A stretch of 26,381 nt of DNA, from positions 1-26,381 of IMG/VR virus record IMGVR_UViG_3300012667_000240. One strand, 5' to 3'. This document shows positions 1,156-17,793 of the stretch, one piece after another (position 1 is the stretch's first letter; every line of letters starts with the position of its first letter). The notes under the pieces were generated by a model. That model searched no databases and had not been told where the DNA came from. It saw nothing but the letters and a program-made list of their open reading frames with translations. Position numbers and translations under genes: made by a program. This DNA is from a virus. Its lineage: Duplodnaviria; Caudoviricetes.

Positions 1156-1566
1156 ATGATTTATTTACTTAAAAATACAGCAGCACAGCTCCTCTACTTG
1201 ACACTCAAGCAAGGGGAGCTTTTGCTGTCTAATACATACACTCATTATCTGCTTGAGCTAACAAATGAGCAGACACTTCAGAAGCTTTACGCTATCCCTA
1301 CCAAGGTAGCTGAGAATGATAGGTATACTACCATTCGTATTGGCACTAACGCTAATACACCAACAGCTGCAAGCCTACTAATTAACTATCCTGCAAGGTT
1401 TAGTTATATTGTTTACGGGCAAAATAGCAGCACTAATTTAGATCCTACCAACGCGGCAGTAGAAGGGGTAATAGAGAAGGGTTATTTGATAGTAGAAGAT
1501 ATTACTACTCCTCGTTTTACTGAGCCGAATTTAACAATAGATAACGATATTACTTACAATGGATAA
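1156..1566 (+). CDS. Hypothetical virion protein (neck/head-closure candidate)
   Basis: 136 aa ORF between the tail tube-like gene and the portal; overlaps the portal start. Confidence 0.5.
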   Translation: MIYLLKNTAAQLLYLTLKQGELLLSNTYTHYLLELTNEQTLQKLYAIPTKVAENDRYTTIRIGTNANTPTAASLLINYPARFSYIVYGQNSSTNLDPTNAAVEGVIEKGYLIVEDITTPRFTEPNLTIDNDITYNG

Positions 1567-3658
1567 TATAGCACAGCCATCAGTACCAATGTTAGTTAAT
1601 TTGGGTGCAGCAATGCCTCAGGAAGCTACCGAGAAAGAAACACCTAAAGGGTGGGTAACACTTGGCGAGGCTAACTTGTTTAGCAATTATCTCATTGATT
1701 TGTACTATGCCTCTCCTGTGCACTCTGCATTGACGATGAGCATATCTTTCATGATAGCAGGAAAGGAAATTAAGAGCAATAATCCTGCTGCACAACGTGA
1801 GATTGATAGACTTAAATTAAATACCATTCGCAGGCCTATAGCCTTAGATGCTAAGATGCAGGGCGGGTATTACTTAGAGGTGATTTGGTCAGTAGATAGA
1901 AGCACTATAGCTAAGATTAACCATTTACCATACGAGAATTGCCGCTTAGCTGTGGCTAATGAAGAGGATATTATACCCGGTATTTATTATTCTAAAGATT
2001 GGAGCGACACACGTAAGAAGAAAAACATTCCTGTGTTTATTCCGATGTATAACCCAACAACGAAAGCAGATGAGCCATCTCAAGTGCTATTTGTTGGAGT
2101 GATGACGCCAGGTTCTGCTTACTATCCGAAGCCTGATTACTACAGCGCTATTAACTACATCGAAATCACAAGAGATATCAGTGAGTTTTACCGAGCATTC
2201 TTAAGCAATGGAATGGCACCGAGCTATTTCTTGCACATGAATAACGGTATCCCTGATCCTGAGGAGCAGATGGCTATTCGCAGAAATTGGGAGACAATGG
2301 TGGGTGCTAAAAAAGCAGGTAAGGTAGTATTTACTTTCAACGAGTCAGCTGATAGAGCACCGCGTTTAGACCTTGTGCCTATGAGTGATGCAGATAAGCA
2401 GTGGCAAGAACTAAGCGTGCAGTCAAGAGAGAATATTTTAGCGGCTCACCGCGTAACTTCACCTCTACTTTTTGGTATTAGAGATGCAGGCGGCTTAGGT
2501 AGCAACGCTGATGAAATGAAGAGCGCTTATCGCATCTTCAACAGAAACATCATTGAGCCTTACCAACAAATTATAACAGATAGCCTTGAAGAAATTTTTA
2601 AAGGTATGGGTGTTATTGCTGATTTATACATTGAATCTAATGATATATTCGGCGAAGAAATCACTACAACAACTGTTGCACAAAATGCAACAACTCATCT
2701 AAGCGCTCAAAAAAAAAAGACTAATTTAGCCATTCCTGAGTCATTTGAGCCTACTAATGAGATGGCCGCAGAGGCTGAGTTAGGTTTAAAGTGGCGAGAT
2801 GAATATGGCAGAGGTGGTACTGAAGTAGGAGTAGCAAGAGCACGCGACATTAGTAATAAGCGTAACCTATCTTATGAGACCATTACACGCATGTACAGCT
2901 ACTTTGAAAGACATGAAGTAGATAAGGAAGCTACAGGATGGAATCAAGGAGAGGAAGGCTTCCCAACAGCAGGCAGAGTAGCATGGCAGTTATGGGGTGG
3001 TGATGCAGGGAGAGACTGGGCTACTGCTATTTACAATAGATATAAGACTGAATTATCTGCCGATCCGCAAGAAAAGCCGCCAATCTTTACAGAAGATGAT
3101 GAAAATTGGTGGTGTGAATTCTTAGAAGATAAGGGCGAGATTGTAGACGAGGAAGAGTGGGAGCTTATCGAAGCTGAGCCTGTTAATCTTGCTTCAGTTC
3201 GCAGTTATGCTGATCCTGATAAGCCATCTGAAATGGATAGCGGACTTTATAAAATCAGATACAGCTATTCAAAGAATCTAAGCGCTAATAGTAGAAAATT
3301 CTGCAGGCAGATGGTAAGCGCAGCTAATGCAGGTTACGTGTATAGATACGAAGATTTAACTGCAATGAGTGCAGATACTAATGAGCTTAATCCTAAGATG
3401 GGCCACAATGGCTCTACCTATAGCGTATGGTTATACAAGGGCTCAGTCAATTGCAAACACTACTGGGAGCGAAGAGTCTATTTTAGAAAGCGTGAGAAAG
3501 GAAGATTCATTGCAGATAATGGATTAGACTCAAGTAATCCAATTTCAGTGGCTAAAGCTATTCGTGCAGGAATGCCTCTTAAAGATATAGCTAAAGACTT
3601 CGCTACAGCTAACACTCGCACGTATGACTTACCTGATCATGGCAGATATCCAGCATAA
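1559..3658 (+). CDS. Portal protein with C-terminal fused accessory domains
   Basis: N-terminal ~370 aa has portal motifs (FLSNGMAPS, GAKKAGK, ILAAHRVTSPLLFGI, IIEPYQQII). It is followed by a GGTEVGVARARD...AWQLWGGD domain and a Cys/His domain (SRKFCRQM...NCKHYW) reminiscent of Mu gpF/SPP1 gp7-like morphogenesis domains. Confidence 0.8.
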   Translation: MDNIAQPSVPMLVNLGAAMPQEATEKETPKGWVTLGEANLFSNYLIDLYYASPVHSALTMSISFMIAGKEIKSNNPAAQREIDRLKLNTIRRPIALDAKMQGGYYLEVIWSVDRSTIAKINHLPYENCRLAVANEEDIIPGIYYSKDWSDTRKKKNIPVFIPMYNPTTKADEPSQVLFVGVMTPGSAYYPKPDYYSAINYIEITRDISEFYRAFLSNGMAPSYFLHMNNGIPDPEEQMAIRRNWETMVGAKKAGKVVFTFNESADRAPRLDLVPMSDADKQWQELSVQSRENILAAHRVTSPLLFGIRDAGGLGSNADEMKSAYRIFNRNIIEPYQQIITDSLEEIFKGMGVIADLYIESNDIFGEEITTTTVAQNATTHLSAQKKKTNLAIPESFEPTNEMAAEAELGLKWRDEYGRGGTEVGVARARDISNKRNLSYETITRMYSYFERHEVDKEATGWNQGEEGFPTAGRVAWQLWGGDAGRDWATAIYNRYKTELSADPQEKPPIFTEDDENWWCEFLEDKGEIVDEEEWELIEAEPVNLASVRSYADPDKPSEMDSGLYKIRYSYSKNLSANSRKFCRQMVSAANAGYVYRYEDLTAMSADTNELNPKMGHNGSTYSVWLYKGSVNCKHYWERRVYFRKREKGRFIADNGLDSSNPISVAKAIRAGMPLKDIAKDFATANTRTYDLPDHGRYPA
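2709..2724 (+). other. Candidate -1 frameshift/slippage site (A10; A_AAA_AAG) with -1 frame stop
   Basis: CAA AAA AAA AAG ACT AA; the -1 frame reads AAA AAA GAC TAA (stop 2722-2724). Confidence 0.5.
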
Positions 3659-9322: not shown

Positions 9323-9646
9323 ATGACAACAATCTTATTGAAGCGCATTGAAGCGCTTGAAGAGAGGGTAAAAGCACTTGAATCTAAGCGCTCTGCCTCT
9401 ACCAAATTCACCCCTCCATCACTTGCCGATGTAGTTAGCTACTTAGAAGATTTAGTTTTAGCTAAAAAATTCTATTGCCATTACGAGAGTAACGGTTGGA
9501 AAGTAGGTAAAAACTCCATGAAGAGCTGGAGAGCAGCCGCTGATCAGTGGAGAGCACGTGAGATTAACAATAAAAACACTACAGAAAATGAGCAAAGAAT
9601 TGGCCGCATTAGTACAGCAGAGCTTCAGTCGTTCACTAAGCGCTGA
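9323..9646 (+). CDS. Replication initiator/replisome organiser C-terminal-type domain protein
   Basis: FTPPSL..V..Y...FYCHYESNGWKVGKNSMKSWRAA...W motif, familiar from C-termini of phage initiators. Confidence 0.65.
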   Translation: MTTILLKRIEALEERVKALESKRSASTKFTPPSLADVVSYLEDLVLAKKFYCHYESNGWKVGKNSMKSWRAAADQWRAREINNKNTTENEQRIGRISTAELQSFTKR

Positions 9647-11973: not shown

Positions 11974-12826
11974 AAATATAATAATCACAACGTGCAAGAG
12001 TGGGGATAAGTTCCTCATGATTTCGGATGTGCACTGGGACAATCCCCATTGTGATAGAAAACTACTCAAAGCTCATTTAGATAAATGCTTAGCTGAAAAT
12101 ATTTATTTCGCTGTTAATGGAGATTTATTCTGTGCTATGCAGGGCAAGTATGATCCTCGCAGGAGTAAGAATGATATTAGACCTGAGCATAACGTAGCTA
12201 ACTACTTAGATGCGCTTGTGAACACTGCAATAGATTGGTTTAAACCTTACGCTCATTTGATGGTATTCGTGGGCTATGGTAATCATGAAACAGCTATAAC
12301 TAAGAACTGTGAAACAGATTTAATTGAGCGCTTTGTTAGCGGATTAAATAGAGAAGCAGGCAGCAATGTATTAGTAGGTGGCTATGGTGGGTGGTGGATT
12401 CACAGAGTGCTTAAGGGTAAAACTAATGCCATCGTATTTAAAACTAAATACTACCATGGATCAGGAGGAGGTGGAGTAGTAACTAAGGGAGTTATTCAAA
12501 ATAACCGAATGGGTGTTATGATAGATGGCGCTGATTGTATTTGGAGCGGCCACGTTCACGAGCTATATCACCATGCCGATATGGTAGAAGAGTTAGCCTA
12601 TGCGCATAACGGCGGCTATAGAATCAATATGCGCTACGTGCATCACATCAGAACTGCAAGCTATAAAGAGGAATATGATGAAGGGTACATGGGCTTTCAT
12701 GTAGAGCGCATGAGACCTCCAAAACCTTTGGGCGCTTACCTTATGCAATTGAATTTAGAGAGAGTTAGTAAACCTGTTGATAGTACGTACATTGTGCCTA
12801 ACTTTGTACAATGGAGAGACAAATAA
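11948..12826 (+). CDS. Calcineurin-like metallophosphoesterase
   Basis: SDVH, NGDLF, GNHE, YHG and GHVH motifs in canonical order. Confidence 0.85.
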   Translation: MITSSREGRNIIITTCKSGDKFLMISDVHWDNPHCDRKLLKAHLDKCLAENIYFAVNGDLFCAMQGKYDPRRSKNDIRPEHNVANYLDALVNTAIDWFKPYAHLMVFVGYGNHETAITKNCETDLIERFVSGLNREAGSNVLVGGYGGWWIHRVLKGKTNAIVFKTKYYHGSGGGGVVTKGVIQNNRMGVMIDGADCIWSGHVHELYHHADMVEELAYAHNGGYRINMRYVHHIRTASYKEEYDEGYMGFHVERMRPPKPLGAYLMQLNLERVSKPVDSTYIVPNFVQWRDK

Positions 12827-14130
12827 ACTACAATTTCAAGCCTCTAACACGACAAAGCGAGGCACTTAAATTTCTTTCAGTAGATTCAGATGTTGAAACT
12901 ATCTTGTATGGTGGAGCAGCAGGCGGTGGGAAAACTATGCTCGGCTGCATGTGGCAGATATTACGCAGGCTTAAGTATCCAGGTACACGTTCACTAATAG
13001 GCAGAGCTAAGTTAGACACGCTTAAAAAGACTACTATGGCTACCTTTTTTCAAGTAGCTAATGAGATAGGCTTAAAGGCAGGTGAAGATTTTATCTATAA
13101 TCAGCAGAGCCATATCATTAAATTTAGCAATGGCTCAGAGATTATACTTGCCGATTTGTTCCTCTATCCATCTGATCCAATGATGACGGATTTAGGCGGC
13201 TTGGAAGTTACAGATGTATTTATAGATGAAGCTACTGAGATAACTGAAAAGGCTTACAGCATTGTTAGCTCACGTATACGTTATAAGCTAAAGGAGTTTG
13301 GGCTTAAGCCTAAGATATTACTGACGTGTAACCCATCTAAGGGATGGATTTATAATCAGTTTTACTTACCATACAAGAATCAGAATCTGCCTGCTCACAG
13401 AGCATTTGTTCAAGCTCTACCTGGCGACAATATACACTTACCTGATAGCTACGTAACAAGCTTAACACGTTTACCCGAAGCTGACAGGAAGAGACTGCTT
13501 GAAGGAGACTGGGAATTTGATAACAGTTCAGATAGATTATACATGTATGATGAACTCATGCGCTGCTTTCGCGAGCCAATGAATGTAGGAGAGGGATATA
13601 TCACAGCAGATATAGCGCGACTTGGAAAGGATAGAACTGTGCTATGTGTATGGCGAGGCTTAAGCTGCATAGACATTGTAATCTTAAGGCAGAAACGACA
13701 GGATGAAGTTAAGGCAGAGATACAGCGCTTAATGAATCAGCATGGCATAAGACTAAGCAACGTGCTCGCAGATGCTGATGGGGTGGGGGGTGGCTTGGTA
13801 GATAGCCTACGCTGCCGAGAATTTATGAACGGCAGTAAAGCTGTGAGAGGTAATCAATACATGAATCTAAAAGCAGACTGTTACTTTAGGTTAGGCGAGT
13901 TGATAGATAAGAATGAGATTACTCTGCCTATCAAATGGCAAGAAGATATAGTTAAAGAGTTAGAATTGATTCGAAGAGTAGATCCTGATAAGGAAGGTAA
14001 GCTCAGAGTAACATCAAAAGATACTATCAGCCAGCGCACCGGAGGAATCTCTCCCGATATAGCAGATGCTATTATGATGAGAGCTTATTTTGAGCTCAAT
14101 AGAAACTATACTAAGTATGCGTTTATCTGA
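12811..14130 (+). CDS. terL: Terminase large subunit
   Basis: Walker A YGGAAGGGKT, Walker B FIDEATE, coupling motif LTCNP, nuclease DIARLGKD and SPDIADA. Confidence 0.92.
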   Translation: MERQINYNFKPLTRQSEALKFLSVDSDVETILYGGAAGGGKTMLGCMWQILRRLKYPGTRSLIGRAKLDTLKKTTMATFFQVANEIGLKAGEDFIYNQQSHIIKFSNGSEIILADLFLYPSDPMMTDLGGLEVTDVFIDEATEITEKAYSIVSSRIRYKLKEFGLKPKILLTCNPSKGWIYNQFYLPYKNQNLPAHRAFVQALPGDNIHLPDSYVTSLTRLPEADRKRLLEGDWEFDNSSDRLYMYDELMRCFREPMNVGEGYITADIARLGKDRTVLCVWRGLSCIDIVILRQKRQDEVKAEIQRLMNQHGIRLSNVLADADGVGGGLVDSLRCREFMNGSKAVRGNQYMNLKADCYFRLGELIDKNEITLPIKWQEDIVKELELIRRVDPDKEGKLRVTSKDTISQRTGGISPDIADAIMMRAYFELNRNYTKYAFI

Positions 14131-14277
14131 TTAAAGTGTTATTTAGCACACTTTATTATATTAAAATGTGCTTTATGACGGATATTACATACTATAATGT
14201 GTATTTTTATTATACCCTAAAGGGGCAATTAAGGAGTACTCCCTATGTTTTCTATCCCTAATGGGTATAAAACTAAA

Positions 14278-14303
14278 ATAGGCCTGCACGTTTGCAAGCC
14301 TAT
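14278..14303 (-). terminator. Minus-strand intrinsic terminator
   Basis: On -: ATAGGCTTGCA-AACG-TGCAGGCCTAT then TTTAGTTTT; the G-U pair forms only on the - strand. Confidence 0.7.
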
Positions 14304-14349
14304 CTCAGTAATCAATAATCATTGCTAAACCAAAAGCAAATTCATGGCT

Positions 14350-14357
14350 CAAAGATA
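14350..14357 (-). promoter_or_regulatory. Bacteroidota -7 promoter element on minus strand
   Basis: CAAAGATA on + = TATCTTTG on -; points toward the minus-strand terminator; no clear -33 element. Confidence 0.5.
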
Positions 14358-14372
14358 TAGCGCTAAATGCTA

Positions 14373-14393
14373 TGTGAATAAGTATGTTAACAA
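14373..14393 (-). promoter_or_regulatory. Tandem DnaA boxes (one perfect, one degenerate)
   Basis: TGTGAATAA 14373-14381 (=TTATTCACA, consensus match) and TGTTAACAA 14385-14393. Confidence 0.55.
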
Positions 14394-14421
14394 GATGTTT
14401 ATTTCGATTAAGTTAATAGTC

Positions 14422-14429
14422 TAATTTTG
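14422..14429 (+). promoter_or_regulatory. Bacteroidota -7 promoter element (probably leaderless mRNA)
   Basis: TAATTTTG, 4 nt before ATG 14434. Confidence 0.55.
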
Positions 14430-14433
14430 AATC

Positions 14434-14778
14434 ATGAAGAACGAGGAAGCCTTAATACAAGAGGCTGTTATTAACTATATTAACGCTCAATATCCGAGAC
14501 TTCTTTACTGCGCTTCAGCAGGAGGTGTTCGCACGTCTATGAAACAGGCTGTGAAGATGAAGAAAACAGGATACGTTAAAGGCTTTCCTGATATCTTTAT
14601 CTACAACGCTAAGGGCCCATTCTTTGGATTAGCTATAGAGATGAAAACAGCTAAGGGTGTTATGAGTCAGAGCCAAAAAGACTGGCAAGCAAAGTTAATT
14701 AACAACGGCTACCATGCAGTTACATGCAAGAGCTTCGATGAAGCCAAACAAGTTATAGATGACTACATGGCGCAGTGA
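14434..14778 (+). CDS. VRR-NUC domain nuclease (PD-(D/E)xK, Holliday-junction resolvase-like)
   Basis: E..IQ...I, GYVKGFPDI, IEMKT.KG..S.SQK.W...L...GY motifs. Confidence 0.85.
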   Translation: MKNEEALIQEAVINYINAQYPRLLYCASAGGVRTSMKQAVKMKKTGYVKGFPDIFIYNAKGPFFGLAIEMKTAKGVMSQSQKDWQAKLINNGYHAVTCKSFDEAKQVIDDYMAQ

Positions 14779-15259
14779 AATAGATAGATGCTATCCCGAA
14801 TGGCGCAGAGTAGCAGCAACTGTTACGCGCCAAGATTTAGCCGATGAGCTGCTCCACGATACGCTGCTTAAGATATTAGAGAGTGATAAAGATAAATTAC
14901 AAGATATTCACGATAGAGGTAAGCTCAATAACTACGTGAGCAACGCTATTAGACTCTCTGCACGATGCAGTAATAGCTCATTCAATTATACCAGGTTAAG
15001 ATTCGAAAAGATACGCAATGATCTGAAAGATGATATTATAGATGATGTAAACAAGAGCGTAGGCATGCGCTTAGAAAATGAGCAGTTAGATATCTTCATC
15101 AGCAGGCTGCCTTACTTTGAGAGGGAGCTATTCTTTCTCTATGCATTGGATGATTTCTCTTATCAAGAATTAGCTAAAGAGACTGGTATACCTTTGAACT
15201 ATCTTTACCGTACAATTAAGAAAGCTAAAACAACACTTAGAAATTCACTACAGATATGA
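14759..15259 (+). CDS. Phage ECF-like RNA polymerase sigma factor
   Basis: Region 2-like ADELLHDTLLKILE and region 4 HTH LPYFERELF.L...DDFSYQELAKETGIP...LYRTIKKAK. Confidence 0.75.
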   Translation: MTTWRSEIDRCYPEWRRVAATVTRQDLADELLHDTLLKILESDKDKLQDIHDRGKLNNYVSNAIRLSARCSNSSFNYTRLRFEKIRNDLKDDIIDDVNKSVGMRLENEQLDIFISRLPYFERELFFLYALDDFSYQELAKETGIPLNYLYRTIKKAKTTLRNSLQI

Positions 15260-15777: not shown

Positions 15778-15965
15778 CACTATTAACAATCTATTTAGTA
15801 GGCTTCCTACTGCACTTTGCAATCTTATCTACTAACATTTACAGACATCAGAGGCACTTATCTTCTTACCATTGGTATGCTTATGTGGGTGTGGCTTTTA
15901 CAGGGCTTGTATGGCTGCCTTTTTGGATATACATCACAGTGCTCAGATTTAAACAGCCCAAATAG
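15774..15965 (+). CDS. Small two-TM membrane protein
   Basis: Two hydrophobic segments; ATGA-coupled. Confidence 0.6.
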   Translation: MTLLTIYLVGFLLHFAILSTNIYRHQRHLSSYHWYAYVGVAFTGLVWLPFWIYITVLRFKQPK

Positions 15966-15974
15966 TTTTCCACA
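15966..15974 (+). promoter_or_regulatory. DnaA box (consensus match)
   Basis: TTTTCCACA = TT(A/T)TNCACA. Confidence 0.55.
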
Positions 15975-16001: not shown

Positions 16002-16009
16002 TATATTTG
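16002..16009 (+). promoter_or_regulatory. Bacteroidota -7 promoter element
   Basis: TATATTTG in AT-rich intergenic DNA. Confidence 0.65.
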
Positions 16010-16012
16010 TCT

Positions 16013-16098
16013 CATGCGCAAGATTACTGTTAGACATAAGATTGATTTAAGGTTTAATAATTCCCCTCTGAACGGGCGCATACGTTCTTTGGGGTTTT
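16013..16098 (+). ncRNA. Candidate leader/sRNA with terminator-like hairpin and 5'-loop pseudoknot
   Basis: CCCC-tct-GAACG[GGCGCATA]CGTTC-ttt-GGGG-TTTT; loop GCGCAT is complementary to ATGCGC at 16014-16019. Confidence 0.45.
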
Positions 16099-16239
16099 AT
16101 TGTTTTAAGAGATGAGTAACATCCATTACCTGAGTAAGTCAAAGCTCAGTAACCAATGACTACACTTGCATCACATCAATGCTTGGAACGAGCAATTACT
16201 CTTTTAAGAGTGAGGCAGTTTGTTTTTCTTGGGGGAGCT

Positions 16240-16293
16240 TTTTCTTTTCTTTCTTTTTCTTTTTACCTTTTTTCTTTTTCTTTCTTTTCTTTT
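16240..16293. repeat. Perfect homopyrimidine mirror repeat (25 nt arms, 4 nt spacer), H-DNA/triplex-forming type
   Basis: T4CT4CT3CT5CT5 - ACCT - T5CT5CT3CT4CT4, read directly from the sequence. Confidence 0.9.
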
Positions 16294-16297
16294 GTTT

Positions 16298-16771
16298 ATG
16301 ATTAAATCTACTGCTAACAATAAGCTAAGAGCTGCTAAGAAGCAGATATTTAGTATACTGCTAAAGCAATATGCTATTAAAGTTAAACCTGGTATAAAGC
16401 AGAAGGTTTATCTTAAAGAGTTCTTATCTTTAAATAATTTGACTGCTCCAACAAATAATAAACTAAATGAGTACATTATAGAATTATTTGATAGTGCTGA
16501 TTTTGATGTGATAGGTGCTAACTATGATAGAAATTATAGCCCATCTGATTTAAAGAAATTGAGGGTGCGATTAGTAAAAATGTATGGAGAAAAATGCATG
16601 TGCTGCAATTCAACTGAGCGCATATCAGTAGACCATATTAAACCTTATTCATTGTACAAAGAATTATCTTTAGATTTGGATAACTTACAACTACTATGTA
16701 AGTCATGTAACAGTAAGAAGTCTAATAGGCATTCTACTGATTACAGGCCATTAACTAAAGCTAAAAGCTAA
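16298..16771 (+). CDS. HNH endonuclease
   Basis: CMCC...VDHIKP...LDNLQLLCKSCNSKK; ATG 16298 preferred over TTG 16220. Confidence 0.85.
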   Translation: MIKSTANNKLRAAKKQIFSILLKQYAIKVKPGIKQKVYLKEFLSLNNLTAPTNNKLNEYIIELFDSADFDVIGANYDRNYSPSDLKKLRVRLVKMYGEKCMCCNSTERISVDHIKPYSLYKELSLDLDNLQLLCKSCNSKKSNRHSTDYRPLTKAKS

Positions 16772-16808
16772 TTACACTAATAGTTATAACTAATAAAGAT
16801 TAATATAA

Positions 16809-16999: not shown

Positions 17000-17353
17000 A
17001 TGATATTAATACCAGCACAACTTGAAAGCGTAGGCACAAGAAAAGATAAGACTCTTAAGCTTACCTTTGGTACTAATGAGCTTTCACCGGCACAAGCTGC
17101 TGAACTGTTCGGTACAGCCAATCAGTTCGGTTATCTTGCATTTAAAGATGAGAGCTTTAGACGTGAGGAGTTAGATGCAGTAGAATCGCTTAAATCAGAG
17201 TTAGAAGATACACTTAAGAAACCATCACAACGGCTACGCGGTATAATGTTTAGAGTTTATGAGGTTGATTCAGAGGGATTTACTACATTTGCTAAATACT
17301 ATGACAGTAAGATGGAGCAGTTAATAACACACTTTAAGAATAAGTTAGCATGA
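17000..17353 (+). CDS. Hypothetical phage protein
   Basis: TRKDKTLKLTFGTNEL...KPSQRLRG...YYDSKME; coupled to TerS. Confidence 0.65.
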   Translation: MILIPAQLESVGTRKDKTLKLTFGTNELSPAQAAELFGTANQFGYLAFKDESFRREELDAVESLKSELEDTLKKPSQRLRGIMFRVYEVDSEGFTTFAKYYDSKMEQLITHFKNKLA

Positions 17354-17793
17354 GTGCCAAGGTCGGAAGTAAAACAGAGCCAAACTCGGAAGGAGATAAC
17401 TTACAAAGTCTTACCATTAAAAAGGCTGCTATGTATGAGGCACTTACAAAGAACTTAGGCAACGTAACTAAGTCAGCTGAGGATATCGGAATACATAGAC
17501 AGACGCATTACGATTGGATGAATGATGATCCTGAATACAAGGCAGCGGTAGACTCACTTAAAAACGTAGCACTTGACTTCGCAGAGGAGCAGTTACGCAA
17601 GCTGATGGAAGGAGCAGAGCGCCAAGCCTTAACGCACGATGGTGAGGTAGTAACTATTAAAGATGCACCTAATACATCAGCTGTTATCTTCTACCTTAAG
17701 ACGCAAGGTAAGCAGAGAGGGTATATCGAAAGGCAAGAGCTGAGCACAGAGATAAAGAGCATTAACATAACTATAGACGGTACAAATATTTAA
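17350..17793 (+). CDS. terS: Terminase small subunit
   Basis: N-terminal HTH (GNVTKSAEDIGIHRQTHYDW..DDPEY) and AVIFYLKTQGKQRGY.ERQE motif. Confidence 0.7.
   Translation: MSAKVGSKTEPNSEGDNLQSLTIKKAAMYEALTKNLGNVTKSAEDIGIHRQTHYDWMNDDPEYKAAVDSLKNVALDFAEEQLRKLMEGAERQALTHDGEVVTIKDAPNTSAVIFYLKTQGKQRGYIERQELSTEIKSINITIDGTNI

Follow-up and report, generated by a model that had tools for sequence, protein, structure and literature searches.

The H-motifs of H-DNA (H-y3/H-y5) are homopyrimidine/homopurine mirror repeats with a short central hinge, and H-DNA was established by second-site reversion, in which symmetry lost through a change in one arm is restored by a compensating change in the other (as outlined in the excerpt of PMC11667243). 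According to the excerpt of PMC12214015, the long H-motifs known to date are mostly simple tandem repeats and represent harmful by-products. Another triplex-type motif of prokaryotic intergenic DNA is the BoxC/PIT/TMECO intrastrand triplex repeat, which has three tracts on one strand, is G/C-rich and multi-copy, and is not found with phages according to the section of PMC4666352 that describes it. Lastly, the R-loop origins oriF(uvsY) and oriG of phage T4 consist of a promoter followed by an A+T-rich unwinding region and need no iterons; their unwinding elements are not sequence-specific, and the excerpt of PMC3016281 describes no mirror in them.

The window, by which we mean the whole stretch of 26,381 nucleotides analysed here, is a 26.4-kb tailed-phage record that is about 90% complete and carries all of its long genes on one strand. 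In line with the earlier note, positions 16240-16264 are the exact reverse of positions 16269-16293 across a 4-nt loop, and the T runs follow the pattern 4,4,3,5,5 and 5,5,3,4,4. Both arms are purely C/T and the 25+4+25 layout is symmetric about its short hinge; judged by its letters, the element is an H-motif. It is the sole mirror in the window with an arm of more than 10 nt (the next-best arm has 10 nt), and the 54-mer is intergenic, being located between a small membrane-protein-like gene that ends at 15965 and an HNH gene. Unlike the known H-motifs, however, the phage mirror is non-periodic, single-copy, under purifying selection and embedded in a module with a promoter and hairpins. Unlike BoxC/PIT, it has no purine tract on the same strand and is present once per genome. 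Identity with BoxC/PIT was therefore rejected, the more so as, of the 10 genomes examined, those with a long mirror have just one. Our search of the open-access literature yielded no publication that describes a conserved phage module with an H-motif, and the module is uncatalogued.

What had previously been described as a stand-alone element is the 3' part of this larger single-copy module, which comprises, in this order, a predicted Bacteroidota-type promoter, a covarying stem, a short extra mirror, a G-run, the mirror and an A+T-rich flank (Table 1). The earlier note had missed this module as well as its replacement by a different module in close relatives.

Table 1. Positions of the module parts and of associated genes in the window.
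Feature	Position	Strand	Remarks
Protein with DnaA C-terminal helix-turn-helix	8420..8905	+	Pfam Bac_DnaA_C 5e-19; outside module
107-aa protein, C-terminal domain of phage replication initiators only	9323..9646	+	Outside module
DnaA-box-like 9-mer	15966..15974	+	Directly after upstream stop codon; one of two in window
Bacteroidota-type -7 promoter element TAnnTTTG (predicted)	16002..16009	+	55/55 distinct syntenic regions
Terminator-like hairpin and U-tract between promoter and core	16063..16106	+	Window's phage group only; predicted function
Hairpin, invariant in close relatives	16130..16149	+	Compensatory changes in stem
Predicted pseudoknot	16137-16140 (hairpin loop) with 16158-16161	+	By eye
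Conserved core	16160..16195	+	Stem 16168-16171/16179-16182, ACTT bulge, flanking stem 16160-16163/16183-16186, conserved tail
Small hairpin between core and T0	16197..16212	+	Compensatory changes
Short extra pyrimidine tract T0	16219..16228	+	Mirrors start of 5' arm (16238-16247) across G-rich loop
G-run in loop of short mirror	16231..16235	+	G5-G7 in many variants, short G-containing loop in others
5' pyrimidine arm	16240..16264	+	T runs 4,4,3,5,5 with single C between; identical in 29/29 distinct type-A regions
Hinge loop, 4 nt	16265..16268	+	
3' pyrimidine arm, exact mirror of 5' arm	16269..16293	+	Covaries with 5' arm
Free-standing HNH endonuclease gene, inserted behind mirror	16298..16771	+	Pfam HNH 1e-12; outside module
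Remnant of A+T-rich, AGCT-rich tract	16757..16800	+	Directly follows either module in HNH-less relatives

One isolated mirror of this kind is modestly unlikely, at about 1% given its run lengths, and the relatives decide the matter. An arm of 25 was obtained in 0 of 20,000 shuffles of the 54 letters, in 287 of 20,000 (1.4%) when the T-run lengths alone were shuffled, and in 110 of 20,000 when the runs were drawn independently. Under the run-preserving null, the single copy is thus weaker evidence than had been implied by the argument that slippage would not produce so irregular a spacing. A coding explanation for the tract was rejected, since both arms show changes of a single base, which shift any reading frame, and the frame across the core differs between groups; a TTG-started upstream extension of the HNH frame (16220) is missing in HNH-less relatives.

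To look at close relatives, 116 IMG/VR loci were retrieved with TerS and the gene at 15256, and 82 sequences (the window included) spanned the intergenic region, 55 of them distinct. The identical 54-mer was present in 29 of these 55 regions (type A), although their flanks diverge to mean identities of 71% just upstream of the first hairpin and 58% just downstream of the mirror. When loci were fetched by the upstream hairpin alone, 42 of 47 assembled IMG/VR contigs had the same 54-mer and in the remaining 5 the contig ended before or inside the tract, which shows that the 54-mer is not an assembly artefact. Altogether, 7 of the 47 type-A contigs end inside the tract or within ~40 nt behind the mirror; these ends may represent assembly breaks, library drop-out or true DNA ends.

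The other 26 of the 55 distinct close relatives (type B) have no mirror in this slot, but a different and longer structured module; the mirror is therefore replaceable. The type-B element (L001, L008, L016, L026 and others; syntenic with window 16060-16300) is a ~370-nt multi-hairpin element, the 3' part of which has a stem ending in letters like those of the type-A core. It weakly resembles the Betaproteobacteria-1 RNA of Rfam (RF02932), with 29-38 bits and an E-value of 1.5e-5 at best, which is below the gathering score of 49.4; the module of the window itself has no RF02932 match. Both types start with a Bacteroidota-type -7 box (55/55) and a terminator-like hairpin, and both finish in the AGCT-rich tract. 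For early and replication-related genes, the identity ranges overlap between the 20 type-A and 17 type-B loci that reach them, indicating that the modules are swapped without an evident partner protein. An invariant ATG follows the terminator-like hairpin in both types (window 16112-16159); in type A, it starts a frame of 15 codons, and the first of these codons vary but show no indels.

More distant relatives were identified by a degenerate pyrimidine scan of 8 of the 64 parts of IMG/VR (123 loci), which revealed further non-periodic mirrors with a common upstream hairpin. A follow-up search used this hairpin alone as the query, with the mirror excluded. Among the matches listed, the 119 viral loci comprised 66 with a short-loop mirror, 4 with a G-run mirror and 49 with neither, and the 117 metagenome loci comprised 53 with a short-loop mirror, 4 with a long-loop mirror, 10 with a G-run mirror and 50 with neither; a T/C mirror thus followed the hairpin in 66/119 and 57/117 loci of these overlapping sets. 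Many of the loci with neither appear to be chance matches or to combine the core with some other element behind it, and in about eight of them, inspected by eye, the T-rich tract is short, cut off or degenerate. Both hairpin searches were then pooled with a third scan whose pattern included part of one arm, giving, among the matches listed, 60 distinct arm variants with a score of 12 or more and 38 run-length patterns. As these variants were chosen for scoring as mirrors, the counts from the unbiased hairpin searches are the fairer measure of how frequent symmetry is.

The run-length patterns are symmetric in 36 of the 38 cases, while arms cross-paired between variants agree in only 47 of 1406 (among the matches listed). 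The T-run lengths therefore change on both arms together, a natural counterpart of second-site compensation. In a tree of 117 rows for which the flanks alone were used, the run pattern changes repeatedly, in clades apart from one another, and the clade that includes the window has three states of the inner run (4, 5 or 6, alike on both arms). The earlier note's view that the symmetry is selected is borne out by co-ordinated changes in many variants and clades. Neither chance nor shared descent can account for the diversity of the symmetric patterns, and selection is left as the explanation because no templated mechanism besides simple-repeat expansion readily makes mirrors, as far as the excerpt of PMC12214015 goes.

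The variation within the arms was examined further for what it says about structure. Among the 60 variants from the matches listed, 208 arm positions are other than T/T; these are C/C in 176 cases, C with G in 18, G/G in 6, A/A in 3, C with T in 3 and involve A in 2, and T is never opposite G or A. The T-run register is strict, more strictly held than the spacer letter, and the spacers are mostly C, single and separated, which is the most stable pattern for a parallel triplex according to the excerpt of PMC5814803. The loop sequence is free (26 sequences among the 60 variants from the matches listed), and some loops reach 15-24 nt; the long-loop variants L667, L682 and L703 retain 20-nt arms. 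The excess of C-to-G over C-to-T changes would fit G.G-C triads being tolerated in the third strand. Both arms are pure C/T in 44 of the 60 variants and one arm is pure in 8 more (among the matches listed). A fixed third-strand arm was rejected, and no isoform can be assigned, because non-C spacers occur on either arm. There is no purine copy in cis, and the best match elsewhere in the window (19-20/25) is far off. A search of 10 genomes found no second copy of the purine target, so that the partner is most naturally the complementary strand. In 14 loci with the core (among the matches listed) the place of the T/C mirror is taken by a G6-7/3-nt/G5-7 mirror, with a short C-rich tract before it and a small hairpin after it in L309, L312, L324, L368, L602, L606 and L694. 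If these G mirrors are analogues, they point to DNA, because purine-motif triplexes do not form in RNA according to the excerpt of PMC4666352. The T/C mirror fits a pyrimidine-motif triplex, and a triplex is very probably the structure for which it was selected. Against a strict triplex stand the 8 of 60 variants (among the matches listed) with purine interruptions on both arms, which neither isoform avoids, as well as the dependence of C+ triads on acid pH or strong supercoiling reported in the excerpts of PMC11667243 and PMC5814803.

The -7 box matches the Bacteroidota-type consensus given in the excerpt of PMC6847099, and of the 89 distinct members of the wider family, 54 have a consensus match 5-45 nt ahead of the core (among the matches listed). 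A host among the Bacteroidota is suggested by the promoter motif together with one Muricauda-named homologue of the gene at 17000. GTDB genomes gave 0 matches with the strict pattern and 7 with the core pattern, none of them with a mirror, and hence no named host; in annotated GenBank phages neither the region nor the module was matched. A consensus scan gave no report of the terminator-like hairpin at 16063..16106. The inner helix of the core has changes on both sides in 4/4 pairs, with 93% of cells paired, and 0 of 500 shuffles scored as high, a figure that is inflated by relatedness. The outer helix varies on one side only, some pairs of the core are G.U, and the letters of bulge and tail are invariant. 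Rfam returned nothing meaningful for the core, for the window as a whole or for 14 family loci, and folding of the whole transcript is unremarkable (z -1.13). T0 forms a second, overlapping mirror, with a median score of 9 in 60 variants compared to 3 for a control downstream of the 3' arm; the score reaches 16 in L317. Over the 40 nt behind the mirror, the median A+T content is 85% versus 71% for the locus, and it was higher in 92 of 96 cases (among the matches listed). The mirror is thus followed by the A+T-rich flank characteristic of R-loop origins, in intergenic DNA that is A+T-rich anyway. Counted per 70 nt, the AGCT-rich tract has 3-9 of its 4-mers in 44 of the 45 relatives, as compared to a genome average of 1.1. 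In L293, L302, L348, L387, L393 and L605 the same core leads into a long structured tract of higher GC content that lacks a mirror, an additional uncatalogued variant. Of 16 loci scanned, two have a tRNA gene immediately before the core (L294:2370-2447 and L315:2559-2633).

In all of the 10 genomes the module occurs once, in the sense orientation relative to the genes transcribed behind it, and at the start of an operon. In the window's group it lies ahead of late genes; in G001, G002, G006 and G009 it precedes NinG, Erf and a helicase-like gene, and in G003-G005 it is near a strand switch. The operon behind the module encodes a helicase domain in G002, while G001, G006 and G009 have weak helicase-family matches only. 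The window's 107-aa initiator-like protein has no N-terminal part, whereas the five homologous loci examined have longer genes with one, and G004 and G005 have similarly short open frames of 135 and 141 aa. No mirror of more than 9 nt was found inside the full-length initiator genes of 5 loci. The DnaA-like protein and the 9-mer at 15966..15974, which we take to be DnaA-box-like, are possibly a regulator-site pair, but only 34 of the 55 distinct relatives fit the pattern at this site; a second such 9-mer is found on the minus strand near 14381. Elsewhere in the window, TerL (12811-14130) is located among early-type genes, ~3.2 kb upstream of TerS (17350-17793) and not directly after it, and is followed by a 300-bp non-coding gap (14130-14434) with several short palindromes and a -7 box at 14422. 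The portal protein (1559-3658) is fused to a long C-terminal extension matching a separate PHROG (2859), and for the gene at 9558 the Atlas gave no family beyond a DUF6633 lead.

Our best guess for the module is a transcription-activated replication origin; the case is circumstantial, and we put this forward as possible rather than probable. Transcription would supply negative supercoiling, and the pyrimidine strand, either that of the DNA or a transcript of the same sequence, would fold back onto its own complementary purine strand to form a triple helix with T.A-T and C+.G-C triads, as H-DNA chemistry suggests. The displaced purine half-strand and the A+T-rich flank could then load a helicase or primosome, as in R-loop origins. 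The layout of a single copy, a promoter-like box and an A+T-rich flank suggests such an origin by analogy to T4 oriF and oriG. The G-runs of ColE1 RNA II and mitochondrial CSB II likewise belong to systems in which a promoter is followed by A+T-rich unwinding without iterons. An origin is also suggested by the genes, in that these phages encode the initiator C-terminal domain alone or, in G002, a helicase domain behind the module. Type-A and type-B phages having the same early gene set is as expected if the module needs no sequence-specific phage protein.

Several observations speak against an origin. In the window's group, a terminator-like hairpin comes between the promoter and the core, and late genes follow the module. 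The HNH gene can sit between the mirror and the A+T-rich tract, G003 carries the module alongside its own primase-helicase and integrase, and the core is also found where mirrors of both kinds are missing, just as close to half of the near relatives are mirrorless. Moreover, H-motifs are best known for polymerase stalling and, according to one review, can antagonise origin firing in mammalian cells. On balance, that the triplex serves replication initiation has, in our estimate, somewhat less than an even chance, and the complete reading, in which a selected mirror folds as a triplex and holds DNA open at a promoter-driven module where replication would start, is marginally more doubtful than this single step.

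Nearly as good a fit as an origin is a terminator or attenuator that closes a small RNA at its 3' end. Here, the triplex would end or attenuate a short structured promoter RNA, the nascent U-rich RNA clamping the purine template and thereby gating the downstream operon. The constant sense orientation at the operon head, the covarying core with its G.U pairs, the tRNA genes just upstream in two loci and the likeness of the replacing module to RF02932, which is listed as an sRNA, all agree with this, and transcription is known to be impeded by H-motifs (excerpt of PMC11667243). However, the genes behind the module belong to the early class in some groups and to the late class in others, a U-tract terminator has no need of mirror symmetry, and an RNA of the G-mirror variant would not adopt the same triplex (excerpt of PMC4666352). 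We consider such a transcription element rather unlikely as the module's actual function.

Less likely again is a polar replication barrier, in which copying of the pyrimidine strand would let the arm not yet copied fold onto the newly made duplex and stop the fork, with the consequence that replication may become one-directional or may switch to a recombination-driven mode. Arrest in the middle of H-motifs is well documented (excerpt of PMC11667243), NinG and Erf genes lie downstream of the module in several genomes, and the contig ends at the tract would agree. This would leave the promoter and the conserved core unexplained, however, and contigs can also break off at such a low-complexity, mosaic junction for reasons of assembly. 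It is also improbable that the mirror acts in RNA alone, by clamping an A-rich RNA in trans through ENE-like U.A-U triples or by binding a protein. The precedence of T-run register over spacer letter and the long loops, which contain hairpins and so suit a single strand, are in favour of this, whereas the C/C pairs at 176 of 208 spacer positions are what a cognate purine strand requires, and a matching purine target is absent elsewhere in the 10 phage genomes.

The earlier note had also linked the mirror to packaging or nicking by the HNH protein or the terminase. The distances that it gave are correct: the HNH start codon lies 4 nt downstream, at 16298, and TerS begins ~1 kb away, at 17350; the clustering of contig ends at the tract would be in keeping with a packaging site. 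Nevertheless, the HNH gene is an occasional insertion, present in 6/29 type-A and 0/26 type-B regions, and TerL is 8-10 kb from the module in G001, G002 and G006, the three genomes checked. There is thus no constant linkage to HNH and terminase of the kind expected for an HNH-assisted cos or pac site. The variable position of the module and the distance to TerL argue against a packaging site, as does the exchange of modules A and B beneath near-identical terminases, and we consider this function very improbable. A neutral (T)nC microsatellite or assembly artefact can be dismissed despite the roughly 1% chance for one copy and the description of long human mirror repeats as products of simple-repeat expansion (excerpt of PMC12214015), as the tract is non-periodic, is invariant in 42 independent assemblies with diverging flanks and has dozens of different symmetric variants, the covariation of which already contradicts this view.

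Expanded simple repeats are where H-DNA is chiefly known, as a source of damage, and it has long been an open question whether natural H-motifs are retained for a function. In these phages, evolution has in effect repeated the second-site-reversion experiment many times, in small genomes, and the module, being short and single-copy, offers a test system for which symmetric variants, tolerated mismatches and replacements already exist in nature. With more reserve than for the single locus, we suggest that it could exemplify a widespread class of origins in which a promoter-driven structured RNA core and an interchangeable opening device replace iterons and the initiator DNA-binding domain, and which would provide the first H-DNA selected for a positive function in a prokaryotic virus. 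Such a device may be a large folded element or a mirror, either of T/C, forming a pyrimidine triplex, or of G, forming a purine triplex or a quadruplex. If the origin proposal is true, it would also suggest a job for the unexplained Betaproteobacteria-1-like element that replaces the module in sister phages.
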